In this document: piece by piece, positions 1 to 6,095 of the stretch
Numbering within the stretch: the first letter of the stretch is position 1
How the letters are laid out: each line of letters starts with the position of its first letter
IMG/VR virus record: IMGVR_UViG_2744054675_000004
Location: 1-6,095 of that record
DNA: 6,095 bases
Strand: one strand, 5' to 3'
Origin: a virus
Taxonomy: Duplodnaviria > Heunggongvirae > Uroviricota > Caudoviricetes
Program-made: the position numbers and the translations under genes
The notes under the pieces: model-generated
Told to the model about the DNA's origin: nothing
What the model saw: the letters and a program-made list of their open reading frames with translations, nothing else
Databases searched by the model: none

Positions 1-205
1 TTTCATGTCGTGCATTGTTTGCAATGATTTTTGCTTCATAAGCAGAAATTACGTCATCTTCATGAATATCTTTCAGAAAGCTGGTGTCAAGACGTTGTAC
101 TATTTCAGCGTTCATTGATCGCTTATTGGCTTTTGCAGAAATTTCTATTTTTTCTTTTACTTCGACGGGAAGTCTGATCCTTAGTTGTGGATCTTCTCTG
201 CTCAT
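1..205 (-). CDS. mnt: Mnt-like ribbon-helix-helix repressor, 3' end runs off the window (partial)
   Basis: Minus-strand ATG at 205..203 opens a frame with no stop before position 1; it is absent from the ORF track because it is incomplete. Translation starts MSREDPQLRIRLPVEVKEKIEISAKANKRSMNAEIVQRLDTSFLKD, which matches my recollection of the P22 Mnt N-terminus (MARDDPHFNFRMPMEVREKLKFRAEANGRSMNSELLQIV). It is divergent from the arc/ant genes, as in P22 immI. Confidence 0.7.
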   Translation of the reverse strand, partial: MSREDPQLRIRLPVEVKEKIEISAKANKRSMNAEIVQRLDTSFLKDIHEDDVISAYEAKIIANNARHE

Positions 206-251
206 GTTCTTCACCAAATATTGAGTTACTTGCAATGATTGAAGTATGCCT

Positions 252-311
252 CACCGTGTGCTTGACATCAATGACGCACGGTGTGACAATTATTTTGCCC
301 CACGGTGGGGC
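252..311. promoter_or_regulatory. Divergent mnt / arc-ant control region: candidate sigma70 promoter and RHH operator palindromes
   Basis: TTGACA at 262-267, a 17-nt spacer, then GACAAT at 285-290 (plus strand, reading toward arc). Palindromic heptamers CACCGTG at 252-258 and CACGGTG at 277-283 and 301-307, the last inside the 15-bp near-perfect palindrome GCCCCACGGTGGGGC at 297-311. The CCACGGTGG core matches my recollection of the P22 mnt operator. Confidence 0.45.
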
Positions 312-325
312 TAAGGAGATATGAA

Positions 326-493
326 ATGCAAAAAGCAAAAGAGATGTGTCAACGACGAGTTCGTTTTCCGGACGATGTGAAGTTAGCTATTGAAAGAAAT
401 GGCGAAAAAGAATGCCGAAAGTTCAATACAGAGATTATCTATCAGCTGAGGAAAGTGTATGGACTCACTGGTGAGAAGAATAGCGTGGCATAA
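326..493 (+). CDS. arc: Arc-like small ribbon-helix-helix repressor (55 aa)
   Basis: ATG at 326 preceded by AAGGAG at 313-318. The ORF track starts this frame at an upstream GTG (305), but the ATG with the Shine-Dalgarno is the likelier start. Product MQKAKEMCQRRVRFPDDVKLAIERNGEKECRKFNTEIIYQLRKVYG... has the size and the basic beta-strand-then-helix pattern of P22 Arc, and sits first in the ant operon as in P22. Confidence 0.65.
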   Translation: MQKAKEMCQRRVRFPDDVKLAIERNGEKECRKFNTEIIYQLRKVYGLTGEKNSVA

Positions 494-503
494 AACAGCG
501 AAG

Positions 504-514
504 CCCCACGGTGG
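504..514. promoter_or_regulatory. Second CCCCACGGTGG copy in the arc-ant intergenic region (candidate operator or RNA structure)
   Basis: CCCCACGGTGG at 504-514 repeats the core of the 297-311 palindrome. It lies between the arc stop (493) and the ant ribosome-binding site (AGGA at 553-556). Confidence 0.3.
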
Positions 515-565
515 CCAGACCGTCAGGGCTTCAGTATCGTAAAACTACGTATAGGAATTAACGAC

Positions 566-1504
566 ATGACGAGTATAGCAACAGCAGTATCTACTATCAA
601 CGTGCCATTCCACGGCGCAGAGCTTTATGTTGTCAATCACAACGGCGAACCGTATACCCCAATGAAACCTATCGTTGAGGGAATGGGGCTAGACTGGAAA
701 TCTCAACATAAGAAGATTTCTCAACGCTTCTCGAAGGGTATGGTGGAAATCACCATACCTTCTGCCGGTGGGGTGCAAGCCATGATTTGTATGGCTTTAC
801 GAAAATTGGCAGCTTGGTTGAACAGCATCAGCCCTAACAAAGTCCGCCCTGAAATCCGCGACAAGGTAATCCAGTATCAGGAAGAGTGTGACGATGTGCT
901 CTACGAGTACTGGACTAAAGGCCATGTGGTTAACCCACGCAAAGCTAAAAAGGCGTTGCCGGGTAAAATAACAACTGAACAGCAGGAAGCCATTAAACAA
1001 CTCGTCATGAGTCGCGGTCAGTCTCTGCCAAAAGAAAAACAGGCTAAGGCGATGATCACCATGTGGTCGTCACTGAAATCTCATTTTGGCTGTTCGTACA
1101 AAGAAATTGGTGAAGATCAATTTGCCGAAGCGTTGTCTCTTGTTGCTCGGGTTCCGCTTGAAGGGGAGTATCTCCCTGCTGGATCTGCATCAGAGAATGA
1201 TGAAGTGGCAGTCAAGATGTTAGATGCGCTTCGTGAGGCAATTAAAACACAGACAAAATGTTATGGTTATCCATTGAAGCCAGGCTACCGCAGTCTGATT
1301 CATTCGCCGTCGGGTGTTCTCGGCCTGACGGAGAACTCACTGCTGATGAATCTGCTGAACCAGTTACAGGAAGACGGGCACGATGTATCGGGCGCGGCGG
1401 CGGAGCTGACCACCATGTTCTGCTACATCGTTGGTGTGAGCAAATGCCTGCGTGATATCCAGACGCACGCGGAATACATCAACGACAAGGCAGGGTTCTT
1501 CTGA
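566..1504 (+). CDS. ant: Phage antirepressor (Ant-type N-terminal domain plus conserved C-terminal module), 312 aa
   Basis: Complete ORF in the track. It sits immediately downstream of the arc-like gene in the same orientation (immI synteny). The N-terminal region (VPFHGAELYVVNHNGEPYTPMKPIVEGMGLDWKSQHKKI...) resembles AntA/P22-Ant type antirepressor N-domains from memory. The C-terminal ~75 aa are near-identical to the C-terminus of the 2560..3255 protein. Confidence 0.8.
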   Translation: MTSIATAVSTINVPFHGAELYVVNHNGEPYTPMKPIVEGMGLDWKSQHKKISQRFSKGMVEITIPSAGGVQAMICMALRKLAAWLNSISPNKVRPEIRDKVIQYQEECDDVLYEYWTKGHVVNPRKAKKALPGKITTEQQEAIKQLVMSRGQSLPKEKQAKAMITMWSSLKSHFGCSYKEIGEDQFAEALSLVARVPLEGEYLPAGSASENDEVAVKMLDALREAIKTQTKCYGYPLKPGYRSLIHSPSGVLGLTENSLLMNLLNQLQEDGHDVSGAAAELTTMFCYIVGVSKCLRDIQTHAEYINDKAGFF

Positions 1505-1530
1505 CAGAACGGCGGCACAGGGACGTGCAA
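1277..1530. repeat. Left arm of an inverted repeat (3' end of ant plus ~25 bp downstream)
   Basis: Manual alignment with the reverse complement of 2536-2787 gives about 11 mismatches over ~230 coding nt (~95%). Similarity continues past the stop codon through GGCACAGGGA(C/T)GTGC. Confidence 0.85.
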
Positions 1531-1554
1531 AACGAAACTAGCGTGACATGTCAC

Positions 1555-1580
1555 AGGCCGCTTTCGCGGCCTTGTTTTTA
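1555..1580 (+). terminator. Rho-independent terminator candidate after ant
   Basis: Stem AGGCCGC (1555-1561), loop TTTC, stem GCGGCCT (1566-1572), followed by TGTTTTTA. Confidence 0.55.
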
Positions 1581-1739
1581 ACGAATGCCACCGCCGCCAG
1601 GGCGGGAATCCGCAGAACGCCCACCGCAGCGGGAGCCGTCAGCAGCAGTGTCGCTGTCGTGCTGACAACGACCGGCAAAGGCCTGAGTTGAAGCTACCAG
1701 AGACAATAAAACGAACAGTGCAGCAAATGCTTTTTTCAT
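1578..1739 (-). CDS. Hypothetical small secreted peptide (53-aa precursor with predicted signal peptide)
   Basis: Internal ATG of the track ORF 1578..1811. Product MKKAFAALFVLLSLVASTQAFA|GRCQHDSDTAADGSRCGGRSADSRPGGGGIR has a textbook N-terminal signal peptide with an AxA cleavage motif and a 31-aa, two-cysteine, Gly/Arg-rich mature part. The ribosome-binding site is weak (GGAAA), and the frame is GC-rich and could be fortuitous. Confidence 0.3.
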   Translation of the reverse strand: MKKAFAALFVLLSLVASTQAFAGRCQHDSDTAADGSRCGGRSADSRPGGGGIR

Positions 1740-1816
1740 TGTGAAATTTCCATCTATAAGCCACCTCAATGTGGCGTCAATGAGTGTAGCACTGACTTTT
1801 GTTTCGTCCACAAAAA

Positions 1817-1833
1817 AGCCCGCAGCGCGGGCT
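1817..1833 (-). terminator. Rho-independent terminator ending the minus-strand cargo operon
   Basis: On the minus strand: AGCCCGC, loop GCT, GCGGGCT, then TTTTTTG. The hairpin overlaps the TAG stop at 1834..1832. It is A-tract-flanked on the other side, so it may act bidirectionally. Confidence 0.65.
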
Positions 1834-2272
1834 ATTCTTCTTCATCATTAAAAAGCGGATTGTTGTTTCCATCTGATGAAAGGAAAGGTATGTGTTCTCT
1901 TGAAAATCCAACAATGACAATTTCATTATCATTTTTTGCATAATGAATGCATTCATTAGAATGCCTTCCGCCAGGGTTGAAATTTAAGTTAATGGTATAA
2001 TTCTTAAATGTGTTTGGATACCATGTTGGCCCACAATGATAATGCCAATAATTCTCTTGCTCATAATTGTCTGAGCCGGGAATTTTATCATGGTTATCAT
2101 CAACCCACGAGGGCTTGTTTTTTCCAACAAGCGCCCTTCCATTGGCAACATCCTCTAAAAAACTTTGTATGATTTTTATTTCATCATCAGTAAGGAAAGG
2201 TCCGTCTACAGCGAAAGGGGTGTTGCTTTCCCCATGTAGAAAACTATTAGATATTCTAATGTTAAACTTCAA
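1832..2272 (-). CDS. Hypothetical acidic protein, 146 aa, no recognised family
   Basis: This is the 3' 146 codons of the track ORF 1832..2413. I propose a TTG start at 2272..2270 preceded by AGGAG at 2283..2279, because the first 47 codons of the long form overlap the upstream 55-aa gene in another frame and look non-protein-like (W/R-rich). Product MKFNIRISNSFLHGESNTPFAVDGPFLTDDEIKIIQSFLEDVANGRALVGKNKPSWVDDNHDKIPGSDNYEQENYWHYHCGPTWYPNTFKNY...SREHIPFLSSDGNNNPLFNDEEE. The region is AT-rich and net acidic with an acidic tail. Confidence 0.5.
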   Translation of the reverse strand: MKFNIRISNSFLHGESNTPFAVDGPFLTDDEIKIIQSFLEDVANGRALVGKNKPSWVDDNHDKIPGSDNYEQENYWHYHCGPTWYPNTFKNYTINLNFNPGGRHSNECIHYAKNDNEIVIVGFSREHIPFLSSDGNNNPLFNDEEE

Positions 2273-2292
2273 GGAAAACTCCTGATGTGCTT

Positions 2293-2460
2293 CTATTTGG
2301 AGCGAAATGCCGCCTTGAAGTCGCTGAAAGATGTTCCTGTCTGGTAAACCATATCCTTGTCGCGCTCTTTGCTTGCGCGGCCAAGCATAACTTTTCCAAT
2401 GACATCCCAGCATTGCTTGGCTTGTTTATTGTGCTGAGTACGATTTTTCAACGCTGTCAT
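2293..2460 (-). CDS. Hypothetical small basic protein, 55 aa, first gene of the cargo operon
   Basis: Not in the ORF track (below its size cut-off). ATG at 2460..2458 with a strong Shine-Dalgarno (minus-strand AAAGGAGG, 6-nt spacer), stop TAG at 2295..2293. Product MTALKNRTQHNKQAKQCWDVIGKVMLGRASKERDKDMVYQTGTSFSDFKAAFRSK is net basic. Confidence 0.5.
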   Translation of the reverse strand: MTALKNRTQHNKQAKQCWDVIGKVMLGRASKERDKDMVYQTGTSFSDFKAAFRSK

Positions 2461-2472
2461 ATCGCGCCTCCT

Positions 2473-2515
2473 TTACCTTTAAGGTAATAGTACGCTATTC
2501 ACCCACAGTCTGCAA
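2473..2515 (-). promoter_or_regulatory. Candidate sigma70 promoter with overlapping TTACC-N5-GGTAA operator (site 1) for the cargo operon
   Basis: Minus strand reads TTGCAG (plus 2515..2510), 17 nt, TACTAT (2492..2487). Palindrome TTACC-TTTAA-GGTAA at 2473-2487 abuts the -10 and the Shine-Dalgarno. Confidence 0.4.
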
Positions 2516-2535
2516 TCTGTACAGAATTATTTAAA

Positions 2536-2787
2536 GGCACATCCCTGTGCCACCGCCCGTCAGAAGAACCCTGCTTTGTCGTTGATGTACTCCGCGTGCG
2601 TCTGGATATCACGCAGGCATTTGCTCACACCGACGATGTAGCAGAACATGGTGGTCAGCTCCGCCGCCGCGCCCGATACATCGTGCCCGTCGTCCTGTAA
2701 CTGGTTCAGCAGATTCATCAGCAGTGAGTTTTCCGTCAGGCCGAGAACACCAGACGGCGAGTGAATCAGGCTACGGTAGCCGGGCTT
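2536..2787. repeat. Right arm of the inverted repeat (3' end of the Bro-N antirepressor gene plus ~25 bp downstream)
   Basis: Reverse complement aligns to 1277-1530; see left arm. Confidence 0.85.
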
Positions 2788-3255
2788 CAGCGGGGCGCTG
2801 TAGGTTTTGTTCTCTATCTTCATCGCCTGCATTACTGCTGACGCCGTGGCGTTGGCTACCTGGTCGGCAACCATCTTTATGCGTTCTTCCTGCGGGAGCG
2901 AGTTTTTAATGTAACTTCCGGTGCGGCGGATCTGAGGAAGAACCTCACCTGTAACCCATTTACGAAAGCGGTAGGGGATAGTGCCTGGTGTCACCGCATC
3001 GCGGCAGCGGAGGATCAGTGTGTAGAGGCCTGACTCGGAGATGATGATCGATTCTTGCTCACCGCCAGGGGTGTCGGTTGAAGCGACGCCCTTCTCATCA
3101 TCATCAAGTTTTCGAACAGCATCTCGATGGTTTGCTATGCCTATAGCCCGACAAACATCTGAAGCGATAAACCATGGCTCACCATTAATGACGATTACCC
3201 GTATATCGGCTTGGGATTCGAAAGAAAAAATGGACGTGCTTTTTGTAGCTGTCAT
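2560..3255 (-). CDS. Bro-N-domain antirepressor-like protein sharing the Ant C-terminal module, 231 aa
   Basis: Complete ORF in the track. The N-terminus (FESQADIRVIVINGEPWFIASDVCRAIGIANHRDAVRKLDDDEKGV ... FRKWVTGEVLPQIRRTGSY) fits the Bro-N domain signature from memory. The C-terminal 75 aa (KPGYRSLIHSPSGVLGLTENSLLMNLLNQLQDDGHDVSGAAAELTTMFCYIVGVSKCLRDIQTHAEYINDKAGFF) differ from the 566..1504 protein at a single residue (E/D). Confidence 0.8.
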   Translation of the reverse strand: MTATKSTSIFSFESQADIRVIVINGEPWFIASDVCRAIGIANHRDAVRKLDDDEKGVASTDTPGGEQESIIISESGLYTLILRCRDAVTPGTIPYRFRKWVTGEVLPQIRRTGSYIKNSLPQEERIKMVADQVANATASAVMQAMKIENKTYSAPLKPGYRSLIHSPSGVLGLTENSLLMNLLNQLQDDGHDVSGAAAELTTMFCYIVGVSKCLRDIQTHAEYINDKAGFF

Positions 3256-3451
3256 AGTGGTTACCTTTTAGTCTGGTTAATCACCACTACCGACGCCAAT
3301 CGGTTGGTGGTGAACTGTGCAGGGTTGGCGTAACCGGCTAAAAGGACCCGGCGCACCTTTCGGTGCCCCCACACAGCCCACCATAATACGAATGTGGCCG
3401 TGCTATACGCATAAAAAAACCGCTTGCGCGGTGAATGCGCCTTTTAGTAAT

Positions 3452-3489
3452 CCGGGACGCCAATCCCGGCACTGGATTTTTCCAGTGCC
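3452..3489. other. Tandem perfect hairpins in the divergent intergenic region
   Basis: CCGGGA-CGCCAA-TCCCGG (3452-3469), immediately followed by GGCACTGGA-TTTT-TCCAGTGCC (3468-3489; 9-bp perfect stem). No T-tract follows on either strand. Confidence 0.35.
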
Positions 3490-3524
3490 CGATTACTATG
3501 ACACAAGAGGAGTGCGATGTAAAT

Positions 3525-3539
3525 TTACCGCAAAGGTAA
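3525..3539. promoter_or_regulatory. TTACC-N5-GGTAA palindrome, site 2
   Basis: TTACC-GCAAA-GGTAA, centred about 93 bp upstream of site 3. Confidence 0.4.
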
Positions 3540-3616
3540 TGATAAGCGCGGAGGTATATAAAAATCAACCGTATTTGGTTGGTGGCGTTTAGCGCTTGAT
3601 CACCTGAAAGCAAGAT

Positions 3617-3633
3617 ATTACCTTTAAGGTAAT
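3617..3633. promoter_or_regulatory. TTACC-N5-GGTAA palindrome, site 3, just upstream of the 242-aa gene
   Basis: ATTACC-TTTAA-GGTAAT ends 20 bp before the ATG at 3653. The half-sites and spacer are identical to site 1. Confidence 0.45.
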
Positions 3634-3652
3634 GTTATTGTGAGGAAAAGCA

Positions 3653-4381
3653 ATGGAAGTTTTCTGGATAGTTGTTGGTGTGGTTGCGGTGATTATTTAC
3701 GTTATCAACCAGAACAAGACTAAGATCTCTGATCGTACGGTCGTTAATCATAACAAAACGATAAAGACCGAAGATGGGGAGATAACGATTAATCGTACAC
3801 AGGTGATAGAACACACCTCTACTCAGTTTCAAAAAACTGGAGGTAATGCGCCTAATATTTCCGCACCTCCTGCTTATGATAGTGCGGTAATCCAGACATA
3901 TTATAAACAGCAGGAGTTAGCAAAAGAGAGGCAACTGATTCAGCCAAAGCCGTTTACAGCTGAGCTTCCACCTGGAGTGTCAACGCCTCCGGCATATCAT
4001 GGAAGATTCCCTGGTGATGACATATCGTCTCAGTCATCTAAAAAAGCACCTCAGGCAGTATCAGAGCCAGCAAGAATACCTTCTGTATCGCCGCCAAAAG
4101 AAGAATCAGCTAACAGAGTTTCAAGTGGTAGCAAGCAGTGCTTGCGATGCAGAATAAACCTTCCGTATGAGAAGTTCAGGAAATCGTCAAAAAATCCAGA
4201 TGGATTGACTAAGTGGTGTGCAAGGTGTCTCGATGGCCCAAAGAATACACGTCATATGAAGTGGTGCCCAATTTGTAATGTCCGCAGAAAACGAACCAGC
4301 TTTTACCCTAATAATCAAAATGCGGATGGCTTAATGGCATGGTGTAAAACGTGCTGGGACGAGCACAAAGCGAAACGATAG
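3653..4381 (+). CDS. Hypothetical membrane-anchored protein with a Pro-rich linker and C-terminal tandem CxxC zinc-ribbon repeats, 242 aa
   Basis: Complete ORF in the track, with AGGA 7 nt upstream of the ATG. N-terminal hydrophobic helix EVFWIVVGVVAVIIYVI followed by NQNKTK. Low-complexity middle with two PPAY motifs. C-terminus has C-x2-C ... NPDGLTKWC-x2-C and C-x2-C ... NADGLMAWC-x2-C (8 Cys in 4 CxxC pairs). It is followed directly by a terminator. Confidence 0.65.
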   Translation: MEVFWIVVGVVAVIIYVINQNKTKISDRTVVNHNKTIKTEDGEITINRTQVIEHTSTQFQKTGGNAPNISAPPAYDSAVIQTYYKQQELAKERQLIQPKPFTAELPPGVSTPPAYHGRFPGDDISSQSSKKAPQAVSEPARIPSVSPPKEESANRVSSGSKQCLRCRINLPYEKFRKSSKNPDGLTKWCARCLDGPKNTRHMKWCPICNVRRKRTSFYPNNQNADGLMAWCKTCWDEHKAKR

Positions 4382-4404
4382 GCCGCTCTAGCGGCCTTTT
4401 CTTT
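4381..4404. terminator. Bidirectional rho-independent terminator between convergent genes
   Basis: GGCCGC-TCTA-GCGGCC followed by TTTTCTTT on the plus strand. The same hairpin lies directly after the stop of the minus-strand gene 4403..4660. Confidence 0.65.
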
Positions 4405-4660
4405 ATGTGGTTTGTTTTCGTAATTGTTCGGCACAATAGTCGAGATGTGTTTGCAGATCCTGCATAGACATCTGTGAGCTGGTGACGTAGTTAATCAGTG
4501 CAGTCAGTTCGGCAAGTGGGCCATCGACATTAAATCCATCCTTATCGAGATCCCGGAGTAATTTCATCAAGTGCGATCCCTCCACCAGTGACCTGACGCC
4601 TCCCGGCGTGTGAATCCTTTCGGTAAATCCGTCTTCCAGTGGATAGTGATACTGCTGCAT
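4403..4660 (-). CDS. Stand-alone homolog of the antirepressor C-terminal module, 85 aa; candidate SOS-inducible antirepressor
   Basis: Track ORF 4403..4678 starts at a TTG; the ATG at 4660..4658 with GGAG 8 nt upstream is the likelier start. The product (…HTPGGVRSLVEGSHLMKLLRDLDKDGFNVDGPLAELTALINYVTSSQMSMQDLQTHLDY…) aligns with the C-terminal module of both antirepressors (HSPSGVLGLTENSLLMNLLNQLQEDGHDVSGAAAELTTMFCYIVGVSKCLRDIQTHAEY) at roughly 40-45% identity by eye. A LexA box lies 20 bp upstream. Confidence 0.65.
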   Translation of the reverse strand: MQQYHYPLEDGFTERIHTPGGVRSLVEGSHLMKLLRDLDKDGFNVDGPLAELTALINYVTSSQMSMQDLQTHLDYCAEQLRKQTT

Positions 4661-4679
4661 CTTATCTTCTCCATGCAAT

Positions 4680-4699
4680 AACTGTATATTTATACAGTA
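4680..4699. promoter_or_regulatory. LexA (SOS) box
   Basis: AACTGTATATTTATACAGTA matches the E. coli consensus TACTGTATATATATACAGTA at 18 of 20 positions, with CTGT-N8-ACAG intact. It lies 7 bp upstream of the Shine-Dalgarno of the minus-strand gene 4403..4660. Confidence 0.7.
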
Positions 4700-4735
4700 T
4701 CAAATAATTTGTTTGCTATCCAGCACGTTTTGCAA

Positions 4736-4752
4736 ATTACCCGAAAGGTAAT
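4736..4752. promoter_or_regulatory. TTACC-N5-GGTAA palindrome, site 4
   Basis: ATTACC-CGAAA-GGTAAT in the divergent region between the LexA-boxed small gene and the tailspike gene. Confidence 0.4.
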
Positions 4753-4855
4753 ATCTATTGGTATTTATAGTCTTTCTATCCATATGTGGTTTTTCAGGTA
4801 ATAGAATAACCAGATATGCGGCGCAACGGGTGCTGCGACTATCTGGAGATTTAAC

Positions 4856-6095
4856 ATGACGGTCTCAACCGAAGTTGACCACAACGAATACACTGGTAAC
4901 GGAGCTACGACATCATTTCCGTATACCTTCCGTATTTTCAAAAAAACCGACCTGGTTGTTCAGGTGTCTGACCTGAACGGGAACGTAACAGAATTGGTTC
5001 TGGATACCGGTTATAAGGTAACTGGAGCGGGCACTTATAGTGGCGGTGAAGTGGTTCTCCCGTCGCCGCTTGCTGCTGGCTGGCGAATTACGATAGAGCG
5101 TGTGCTTGATGTGGTGCAGGAGACTGATCTTCGCAATCAGGGAAAATTTTTCCCCGAAGTTCATGAAGATGCATTTGACTACCTGACGATGCTGATCCAG
5201 CGATGTTTTGGGTGGTTCAGACGTGCATTGATGAAACCATCTTTGCTTGCAAAATATTACGATGCAAAGCAAAACAAAATTTCTAACCTTGCAGATCCAT
5301 CATTTGAGCAGGACGCTGTAAATAATCGCTCAATGCGTAATTATGTCGATGCTGCAATCGCCGGGGTTGTTGGTGGTTTTGGTTGGTTTATACCGTCAGG
5401 AAGCGGGGCAAGACAACGAACATTTCAAAGCAAAATGAGGGATATAATTTCTCCTTGTGATTACGAAGATAATATTTTTATGATTAAGGAGTTGATATCC
5501 AAAGGCAAAAATGCCGCTGTTTTTAACTCATATTATACTTTTGTTATTACTGTTGGCGAATGGGGTGATTACCCTACACTCAAAGATGCAATCATTGCAG
5601 CCCAGTCAATGAGGCCTATGTGGGATGGTGGTAATGCTTTCTGCGAAATAAGAATTAAGACCGGGCATATTATCAACTATCAAATTGAATTCAGTTCAGG
5701 TGTTGATTTGTCTTGGATTAAAATAACATCAGAAGACTCAGTGGTTTTCTCTGACACTCGTTTGTTTACTAAAATCGTTAGAACGTATTACGAATACAAG
5801 TATTTATTTTACATTTGCGATGCAGCAAAAAGTCCTGTATTTGCTATTCAGATCGAAGAAAATAGAGATGATAGCGATGTTTGTGCATTTATTGTAACTC
5901 AAAAAGCTGAACTTAATTTCTATCCGTATTCAGGTGCTCGAAAGTTCTACGTTGGAATTCATGGTAGTTTTGGTGCAAAAATTAGTGCATATCATACCGG
6001 ATGTGCTCCTGATGAGGAAAGTGTTGCTGCATATATGCCAGAAGGGTATTACGTATGTGATTTTTCTTATAGCAGATACTCTTCCCTGCAACTGG
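4856..6095 (+). CDS. Tailspike / tail fiber protein, 5' part (runs off the window)
   Basis: ATG at 4856 with GGAG 7 nt upstream; open to the window end (absent from the track because there is no stop). The N-terminus (EYTGNGATTSFPYTFRIFKKTDLVVQV ... QNKISNLADPSFEQDAVNNRSMRNYVDAAIAG) resembles the T7 gp17-type tail-fiber N-terminal particle-binding domain from memory. The downstream AT-rich part contains GDYPTLKDAI, reminiscent of the P22 tailspike motif SDYPTLQDA at the start of its beta-helix. Confidence 0.8.
   Translation, partial: MTVSTEVDHNEYTGNGATTSFPYTFRIFKKTDLVVQVSDLNGNVTELVLDTGYKVTGAGTYSGGEVVLPSPLAAGWRITIERVLDVVQETDLRNQGKFFPEVHEDAFDYLTMLIQRCFGWFRRALMKPSLLAKYYDAKQNKISNLADPSFEQDAVNNRSMRNYVDAAIAGVVGGFGWFIPSGSGARQRTFQSKMRDIISPCDYEDNIFMIKELISKGKNAAVFNSYYTFVITVGEWGDYPTLKDAIIAAQSMRPMWDGGNAFCEIRIKTGHIINYQIEFSSGVDLSWIKITSEDSVVFSDTRLFTKIVRTYYEYKYLFYICDAAKSPVFAIQIEENRDDSDVCAFIVTQKAELNFYPYSGARKFYVGIHGSFGAKISAYHTGCAPDEESVAAYMPEGYYVCDFSYSRYSSLQL

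Follow-up and report, generated by a model that had tools for sequence, protein, structure and literature searches.

A P22 immI-like control region with three related operator-like palindromes and a predicted sar-type antisense RNA in a TL-2011b-like Escherichia coli prophage

Genes and relatives of the locus

We have analysed a stretch of 6,095 nucleotides (nt), positions 1 to 6,095 of the virus record IMGVR_UViG_2744054675_000004 (Caudoviricetes), which is called the window below. Near its left end lies a control region resembling the secondary immunity region immI of phage P22. With its proteins Arc and Mnt, P22 immI is a textbook system for DNA recognition by a beta-sheet and for antisense control. 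In the window, a leftward open reading frame (ORF) runs from position 205, and rightward ORFs occupy 326–493 (55 codons) and 566–1504 (312 codons), the latter two being separated by a spacer of 72 nt (494–565). They are an mnt-like gene, an arc-like gene, and ant, respectively. An earlier note on this DNA had read the arrangement (mnt leftward; arc then ant rightward) as that of P22 immI, and the ORFs and their translations agree with it. Over its first 1600 bases the window has 95% identity to Escherichia phage TL-2011b, and its leftmost 700 bases match prophages of several E. coli chromosomes, including that of E. coli 2015C-4498, at 100%. In TL-2011b, the immI-like region is flanked by internal virion protein genes and one large gene, which is a tail fibre gene by the annotation of an E. 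coli copy. Overall, we consider it quite likely that the region is a P22-type secondary immunity switch in a TL-2011b-like E. coli prophage, with its parts working as proposed below.

We have compared the region with three sets of relatives: 62 viral contigs retrieved by the Arc-like protein (62–100% identity), more than 119 contigs retrieved by a 20-nt promoter block, and 15 species genomes (Proteus, Xenorhabdus, Kluyvera, Pluralibacter, Rouxiella, Yersinia pestis, Raoultella, Dryocola, Mixta, and Pantoea). In all, 74 distinct control regions were compared, of which 27 come from the set found by the Arc-like protein, which is unbiased with regard to the promoter sequence. The module is spread across many Enterobacterales, such as Proteus, Xenorhabdus, Yersinia, Pantoea, Kluyvera, and Escherichia. 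Nearly all relatives carry both repressor genes, and the few exceptions look frameshifted, truncated, disrupted, or missed by the search pattern. The order of a leftward mnt followed by rightward arc and ant is kept in all the related loci examined, except for a few in which a gene is disrupted or escaped recognition.

The mnt-like gene is represented by its 5' part only (1–205, minus strand, 68 codons), since it continues beyond the left end of the window. Its translation begins MSREDPQLRIRLPVEV, and the ribbon-helix-helix N-terminus reads MSREDPQLRIRLP. The protein matches the Pfam family Arc (PF03869, E 2e-15), its N-terminus is 51% identical to residues 1–37 of P22 Mnt, and its top match in the Protein Data Bank (PDB) is the P22 Mnt structure 1MNT (E 1.2e-7). 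In an identical E. coli prophage the full-length protein has 143 amino acids (aa). Across the relatives the N-terminus follows the pattern MSREDPQ(L/F)R(I/V)RLP. The C-terminal parts, on the other hand, are of at least four kinds in the relatives (L004–L201), with protein lengths of 86–91, 117, 124, and 142–152 aa, and by eye appear unrelated. Apparently, the DNA-reading head of the Mnt-like protein has been exchanged among different oligomerisation or effector domains. We have also observed that the TL-2011b reference NC_019445 has one extra base in this gene (GATCCC instead of GATCC, near position 30910; L001 near 6177; window near 177). Its annotated product therefore begins at an internal Met and does not have the DNA-binding strand, while the gene is intact in the window and in most relatives.

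The arc-like gene (326–493, plus strand) encodes a protein of 55 aa with Q9, R11, and R13 in a predicted beta-strand. Its similarity to P22 Arc appears to be weak, with 33% identity (E 4e-5 in a single comparison) and an hhalign E-value of 2e-4 at a probability of 45%. It also matches PHROG 228, 'Arc-like repressor', with E 3e-5, and a profile built from 15 homologues finds Arc in the PDB at E 0.2–0.7. A PDB search with the single sequence returned TAL effectors and repeat proteins, which we have discarded as spurious. Across the relatives the protein starts with M(E/Q)(K/R)A(K/R).M.Q(R/K)(R/K)(V/I)R(F/I)P, and the DNA-facing strand residues are Q/(K or R)/R, to be compared with Q/R/R in the Mnt-like protein. 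In the RefSeq annotation of E. coli 2015C-4498 (L186, 6326–6493), the gene is labelled 'hypothetical protein'.

The ant gene (566–1504, plus strand) encodes an antirepressor of 312 aa, which has a P22_AR_N domain (Pfam PF10547, E 6e-45), shows 39% identity to P22 Ant over 217 aa, and matches PHROG 524, 'anti-repressor Ant'. The same RefSeq annotation (L186, 6602–7504) has ant begin at the equivalent of window 602 instead of the P22-like ATG at 566; it does not annotate the sar RNA described below.

Predicted divergent promoters and operator-like palindromes

Between mnt and arc, a promoter scan found a predicted arc/ant promoter at 262–290 on the plus strand (TTGACA-17-GACAAT, with TG before the -10), which matches the consensus at 10 of 12 positions and is conserved in the 27 distinct control regions found by the Arc-like protein. 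It is the analogue of P22 Pant, and is called so below. A predicted mnt promoter (Pmnt) lies on the minus strand at 243–271, with the -35 hexamer TTGATG (271..266), a spacer of 17 nt, and the -10 hexamer CATACT (248..243); the relatives have TTG(C/A)(T/A)G-17-CATAAT in the same layout. Judged from the sequence, Pmnt and Pant appear to stand back-to-back and to overlap at their -35 hexamers only.

In the 6095-base window there are exactly four copies of the heptamer CACSGTG, at 252–258 (CACCGTG) and at 277–283, 301–307, and 507–513 (CACGGTG), just as the earlier note had counted. Chance would give 0.59 copies, and four were not reached in any of 200 dinucleotide-preserving shuffles. The first three copies lie in three operator-like sites of 15 base pairs (bp). 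If the back-to-back layout is right, site 1 (248–262, GCCTCAC-C-GTGTGCT) is inside the predicted spacer of Pmnt, site 2 (273–287, GACGCAC-G-GTGTGAC) is in the spacer of Pant and overlaps its -10, and site 3 (297–311, GCCCCAC-G-GTGGGGC) covers the predicted Pant transcript start. Site 3 (GCCCCACGGTGGGGC) is a perfect palindrome with the heptamer 301–307 at its centre, and begins 7 nt past the -10 of the TTGACA-17-GACAAT promoter, so that the 15-bp palindrome reported over the predicted ant transcript start is indeed there. As to the motif CAC(C/G)GTG itself, its four copies stand, while the comparison with relatives changes its definition to 15-bp sites with a free central base N.

In the 27 distinct control regions, site 1 stands in the context ATTATG-CCCCAC-N-GTGGGG. 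The window's own site 1 is a hybrid of both half-site types where the relatives have GCCCCAC-N-GTGGGG. Next comes the Pant block with site 2, TTGACA-nCAATGACGCACGGTGT-GACA(A/C)T, then a linker of 5–8 variable bases, and then site 3, G(C/T)C(C/T)CAC-N-GTG(G/A)GGC, from which the sequence is variable up to the ribosome-binding site. The mean pairwise identity is 92% for the operator/promoter block and 89% for site 3, compared with 79% for the arc coding sequence, and it drops to 38% in the linker, 50% downstream of site 3, and 52% in the mnt leader. Thus, site 2 is nearly invariant in relatives whose arc coding sequences average 79% identity, and site 3 forms a conserved island between a variable linker and a variable downstream sequence. 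That the sites are kept while linker and flanks drift is seen in the 27 regions and across all 74. The centre base of site 1, among the 74 distinct regions, is G in 47, C in 19, T in 5, and A in 2, with one further register-shifted variant. Since all four centre bases occur while the operator around them is conserved, this is the pattern expected of a dyad-symmetric protein site. Based on these comparisons, we infer three conserved 15-bp operators, each with two half-sites of 7 nt (GTG-N-G-N-C) that flank a free central base in inverted orientation, and predict that they are bound by protein. No further copies of the operators were found elsewhere in the TL-2011b genome at two or fewer mismatches.

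It could be argued that the repeated heptamers arose by chance, or are promoter features to which no repressor binds, as they overlap promoter elements that are themselves conserved. We consider this extremely improbable. Four copies were never reached in the shuffles; promoter spacers and +1 regions are normally unconstrained, but here they are conserved and palindromic across families of Enterobacterales; and site 3, besides being an island between variable flanks, has a core that matches the mapped Mnt operator of P22.

Two minor observations concern the mnt leader. In most relatives, but not in the lineage of the window, a conserved element TTCACAATA(T/A)GTAAAT stands just 3' of the predicted mnt -10 (e.g., L040, ~1390–1405). 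It forms the imperfect inverted repeat TTCACA-ATA-TGTAAA and could be a further regulatory site. In addition, we have considered whether window 229–243 (TTGCAATGATTGAAG) is a P22 remnant made up of the -35 of Pant and the left half of the Arc operator, and have rejected this, because 210 of 2000 shuffles align equally well.

A predicted sar-like antisense RNA in the arc-ant spacer

The earlier note had proposed the arc-ant spacer as a slot for an antisense RNA, and here the Rfam family sar (RF00262) gives a minus-strand match at 564..497 that covers model positions 1–68 of 68 and scores 44.8 bits, where the gathering score is 43 (E 7e-7). Four relatives score 59–61 bits. The predicted RNA of ~74 nt (492–565, minus strand) is complementary to the ant ribosome-binding site (AGGA, 553–556) and the 5' untranslated region of ant; its ends (~565 to ~492) are placed according to P22 sar (15090..15021). 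Its predicted fold has two hairpins (-24.1 kcal/mol, z -2.3).

The second element is the promoter. The Psar analogue lies at 572–600 on the minus strand (TTGATA-17-TATACT with TG before the -10, scan score 10 of 12), inside ant codons 3–12, with the -10 hexamer TATACT at 577..572. A predicted minus-strand promoter thus stands at the position of P22 Psar, though it is located inside ant (600..572) and not in the spacer at 494–565, where the earlier note would have looked for it. In P22 and nearly all relatives, a TAnnnT -10 keeps a distance of exactly 6 nt to the complement of the ant ATG, in spite of differing Ant N-termini (MTSIA, MNIVA, MKSVS, MPNLA, and others).

The third element is the terminator hairpin (500–532, minus strand), which is followed by GCUGUUUUAU on that strand and abuts or overlaps the arc stop codon. 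A terminator scan of positions 1–800 called none, because the stem is bulged, and the hairpin was instead found by folding. We have collected 23 variants of this hairpin from the relatives. Of these and the P22 hairpin together, 14 were folded, and all of them give -17 to -25 kcal/mol with differing inner stems; the fold of the alignment shows compensatory changes at 4 of 11 pairs. As no U-run follows the hairpin on the plus strand, it should be a terminator for the leftward RNA. Taken together, these features suggest that the spacer encodes a sar-type RNA which, by analogy with P22, would be made and would block the translation of ant.

One may suppose instead that the hairpin merely terminates, attenuates, or stabilises the rightward arc transcript, and that there is no functional antisense RNA. 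The hairpin does form in plus-strand RNA too, and the Rfam score of the window is near the threshold. However, the plus strand continues with AGUAUCGU, which has no U-run, while the minus strand continues with the sequence given above; a near-consensus minus-strand promoter occupies the exact position of P22 Psar; and the Psar -10 is kept within ant codons 3–4 across unrelated Ant N-termini. We regard this explanation of the hairpin as very unlikely.

The fourth heptamer (507–513) requires separate consideration. It is present in the 72-bp spacer as the earlier note had stated, but it is not a conserved operator: it sits in the inner stem of the terminator hairpin (ACGGU/ACCGU), in what is the 3' arm on the sar RNA. 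CACNGTG is found in just 1 of the 23 hairpin variants; 12 loci carry a hairpin that is one base different (CAACGGTG), and the same CAACGGTG is carried by 6 protein-found loci with an identical Arc protein. The fourth heptamer is thus most likely an incidental product of the terminator stem rather than an operator.

Could it nevertheless work as a fourth operator (503–517, GCCCCACGGTGGCCA), coupling the binding of a repressor to the sar terminator or looping to site 3? Its 12-nt GCCCCACGGTGG repeats site 3 exactly, and by our estimate the chance of such a 12-mer repeat within 550 nt is ~0.01. On the other hand, apart from its rarity among the hairpin variants and the CAACGGTG form in relatives with an identical Arc, the right half GTGGCCA does not have the conserved G5 of the half-site. 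The repeated bases also have another role, as GCCCC is the outer stem, conserved in P22 too, and ACGGT pairs with ACCGT in the inner stem. Finally, the fourth heptamer is 206 bp or 19.6 helical turns from site 3, which puts the two out of phase. A working fourth operator thus seems unlikely to us.

Comparison with P22 and other phages

The locus shares with P22 immI the gene order and orientation, a homologous N-terminal domain of Mnt, a homologous N-terminal domain of Ant, and an Arc-like protein. In P22 the annotated Mnt operator (AGGTCCACGGTGGACCT) lies just 3' of the -10 of Pant (TTGACA-17-TATATT), and site 3 is its analogue. The two share CCACGGTGG, and both stand just 3' of the -10 of a TTGACA-17 promoter, over the arc/ant transcript start. 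The likeness to P22 immI claimed at the outset is therefore supported by the 51% identity of the Mnt-like N-terminus, the 39% identity and P22_AR_N domain of Ant, and this common operator core. Likewise, the P22 Arc operator is in the spacer of Pant, where a conserved site (273–287) is also found here; this site does not look like the P22 Arc operator, however, and belongs to the same half-site family as sites 1 and 3. Both P22 and, by prediction, the present locus have a spacer of ~70 nt with sar, a promoter for it in ant codons 3–12, and a terminator abutting the arc stop codon. Even the location is parallel, as P22 immI is between gene 16 and the tailspike gene, and the region here is between virion or injection genes and a tailspike or tail-fibre gene. 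Sequence comparison shows the genes and the RNA to be homologous to those of P22, and the operators, promoters, and hairpin to be conserved.

There are also clear differences. Three related palindromes stand here against one Mnt operator and one unrelated Arc operator in P22. The promoters of P22 (Pant 14793–14821, Pmnt 14826..14798) overlap nearly in full and face each other, which lets one polymerase shut out the other, and one Arc operator serves both; such overlapping, opposed promoters are not predicted here, where the weakly predicted Pmnt (271..243) and Pant (262–290) point apart. The DNA-facing strand residues are Q/R/R here, compared with H/N/R in P22 Mnt and Q/N/R in P22 Arc. The best half-site of P22 Mnt is GTGGACC (PMC2726951). 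The half-site GTGGGGC found here differs from it at positions 5–6, and the Mnt-like protein differs from P22 Mnt by His6 to Gln and Asn8 to Arg. Residue 6 of Mnt is presumably linked to the outer half-site. We infer that the change in the half-site may be linked to the two residue changes. In length, the Mnt-like protein (143 aa) exceeds P22 Mnt (83 aa), and in the 68 residues encoded by the window the C-terminal part gave no alignment with P22 Mnt. The host phage is a TL-2011b-type prophage and is not P22-like.

As for the RNA, both hairpins of Rfam sar are present and are antisense to the ant ribosome-binding site, but the inner stem of the terminator is ACGGU/ACCGU here and ACUG/CAGU in P22 sar, and the loop also differs. 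The score of 44.8 bits is low for the family, when some relatives reach 59–61.

Passages of PMC2629481 describe the 'ant moron' of the P22-like phages epsilon34, CUS-3, ST64T, and L, in which immI is mosaic: the repressor/operator part has been swapped, while sar and the start of ant have been retained. CUS-3 matches window 500–1169, i.e., the sar/ant part only, at 94% identity, with other repressors to the left. The passages returned by literature term searches make no mention of the repressor/operator module of the present locus (the Mnt N-terminus MSREDPQLRIRLP with CAC-N-GTG palindromes), and such searches found no paper on the immunity of TL-2011b. Overall, the locus is of the P22 immI kind and its RNA belongs to Rfam sar, and, within the reach of those searches, the set of three related operators is previously undescribed.

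Proposed working of the switch

With the functions known from P22 (PMC11016777; passages of PMC2629481) as an analogy, the region may work as follows. Divergent promoters with overlapping -35 hexamers would transcribe the mnt-like gene leftward, and the arc-like gene with ant rightward. In a lysogen, the Mnt-like repressor bound at site 3 would silence arc and ant, and so the main prophage repressor would not be inactivated. In infection, when Mnt is absent, Pant would fire; the Arc-like protein would then accumulate and close Pant via site 2, and possibly Pmnt via site 1. Meanwhile, the antisense RNA of ~74 nt, transcribed from the promoter in the first ant codons, would pair with the ant ribosome-binding site and block translation of the remaining mRNA. 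Which protein acts on which site is assigned here by analogy, in the same way as Pmnt and the production of the RNA are predicted.

Several observations weigh against this reading. The Arc-like protein has no match in Pfam or NCBIfam. Its AlphaFold2 monomer, built with 13 database homologues, reached a pLDDT of only 56 (low confidence) and has two helices at the positions of those in Arc but no strand; given this poor model, we regard the Arc-like fold as tentative. The predicted mnt promoter matches the consensus at 8 of 12 positions only, which is below the threshold of the scan, and the sar score of the window is just 1.8 bits over its own threshold. Moreover, because the half-site pattern is common to the sites and both proteins have Q/(R or K)/R on the strand, the assignment of site 3 to Mnt and of site 2 to Arc is by position alone. 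The comparative data do not separate the two roles either, since both repressor genes and the sites are nearly always found together. Lastly, the half-sites found at site 3 in Xenorhabdus and Mixta are of the site 2 type or are hybrids (GTCACACCGTGTGAC; GCCTCACGGTGTGAC), which points to one half-site pattern common to all three sites and argues against a strict partitioning between Mnt and Arc.

It is therefore conceivable, although we would not favour it, that both ribbon-helix-helix paralogues bind all three palindromes, and that the switch works via affinity, oligomeric state, and timing instead of separate operators. All the half-sites fit GTG-N-G-N-C; site 3 of Xenorhabdus and Mixta has half-sites of the site 2 type or hybrids, and the window's own site 1 is such a hybrid; and the strand residues of the Mnt-like (Q/R/R) and Arc-like proteins (Q/(K or R)/R) are nearly the same. 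Yet the P22 pair also has near-same strand residues (H/N/R and Q/N/R) and binds unrelated operators, so the argument from shared residues is weak in either direction. Besides, the N-terminal arms differ (MSRED and MQKAKEMC). A somewhat more speculative version is that the paralogous repressors share one operator pattern and divide maintenance from early shut-off by competition, affinity, or oligomeric state, and that, in the lineage of the window, a one-base change in the sar terminator might have added a weak fourth site.

The locus presumably offers a natural specificity change: Gln6/Arg8 replaces His6/Asn8, GTGGGGC replaces GTGGACC, and the promoter layout is different. The module is conserved from Proteus and Xenorhabdus to Escherichia, Yersinia, and Pantoea, and the variant can be used for studying how ribbon-helix-helix specificity evolves and whether paralogous repressors can share operators. 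In addition, the current annotation of prophages in Shiga-toxin-producing and other E. coli misses the sar RNA, the Arc-like gene, and the true start of ant.

A second antirepressor module and other neighbouring features

The prophages of Shiga-toxin-producing and other E. coli that carry the module have another antirepressor module as well, of the C4/isrK type. In the window, this second module, of the phage P1/Gifsy-1 type, occupies 2560–3501 on the minus strand. It consists of isrK (Rfam, 3488..3413, 76.7 bits), a C4 antisense RNA (3388..3303, 77.7 bits), and, 3' of these, an ORF resembling Bro-N antirepressors (3255..2560). The C4 target sites a1b1 at 3501..3449 score 39.5 bits, which is below the threshold. 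With ant, the window thus holds two convergent antirepressor genes, each with a different antisense-RNA circuit.

An inverted repeat of 270 nt (1236–1505 and 2559–2828) has arms that are 90% complementary and are separated by 1053 nt. The arms are formed by the convergent antirepressor genes, at the 3' end of each; the two products are 83% identical over the last 101 residues, with a single difference in the last 78. The two antirepressors share a C-terminal domain, and the inverted repeat is a possible substrate for inversion. A stand-alone ORF of 91 codons (4403–4678, minus strand) is 42% identical to the C-terminal domain of Ant (E 5e-16), and makes a third copy of this domain within 6 kb. 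Between the two antirepressor genes there is an ORF of 193 codons (1832–2413, minus strand). The corresponding TL-2011b gene carries the annotation of a YafO-family toxin, and an E. coli copy lists it as a frameshifted DUF2335 gene.

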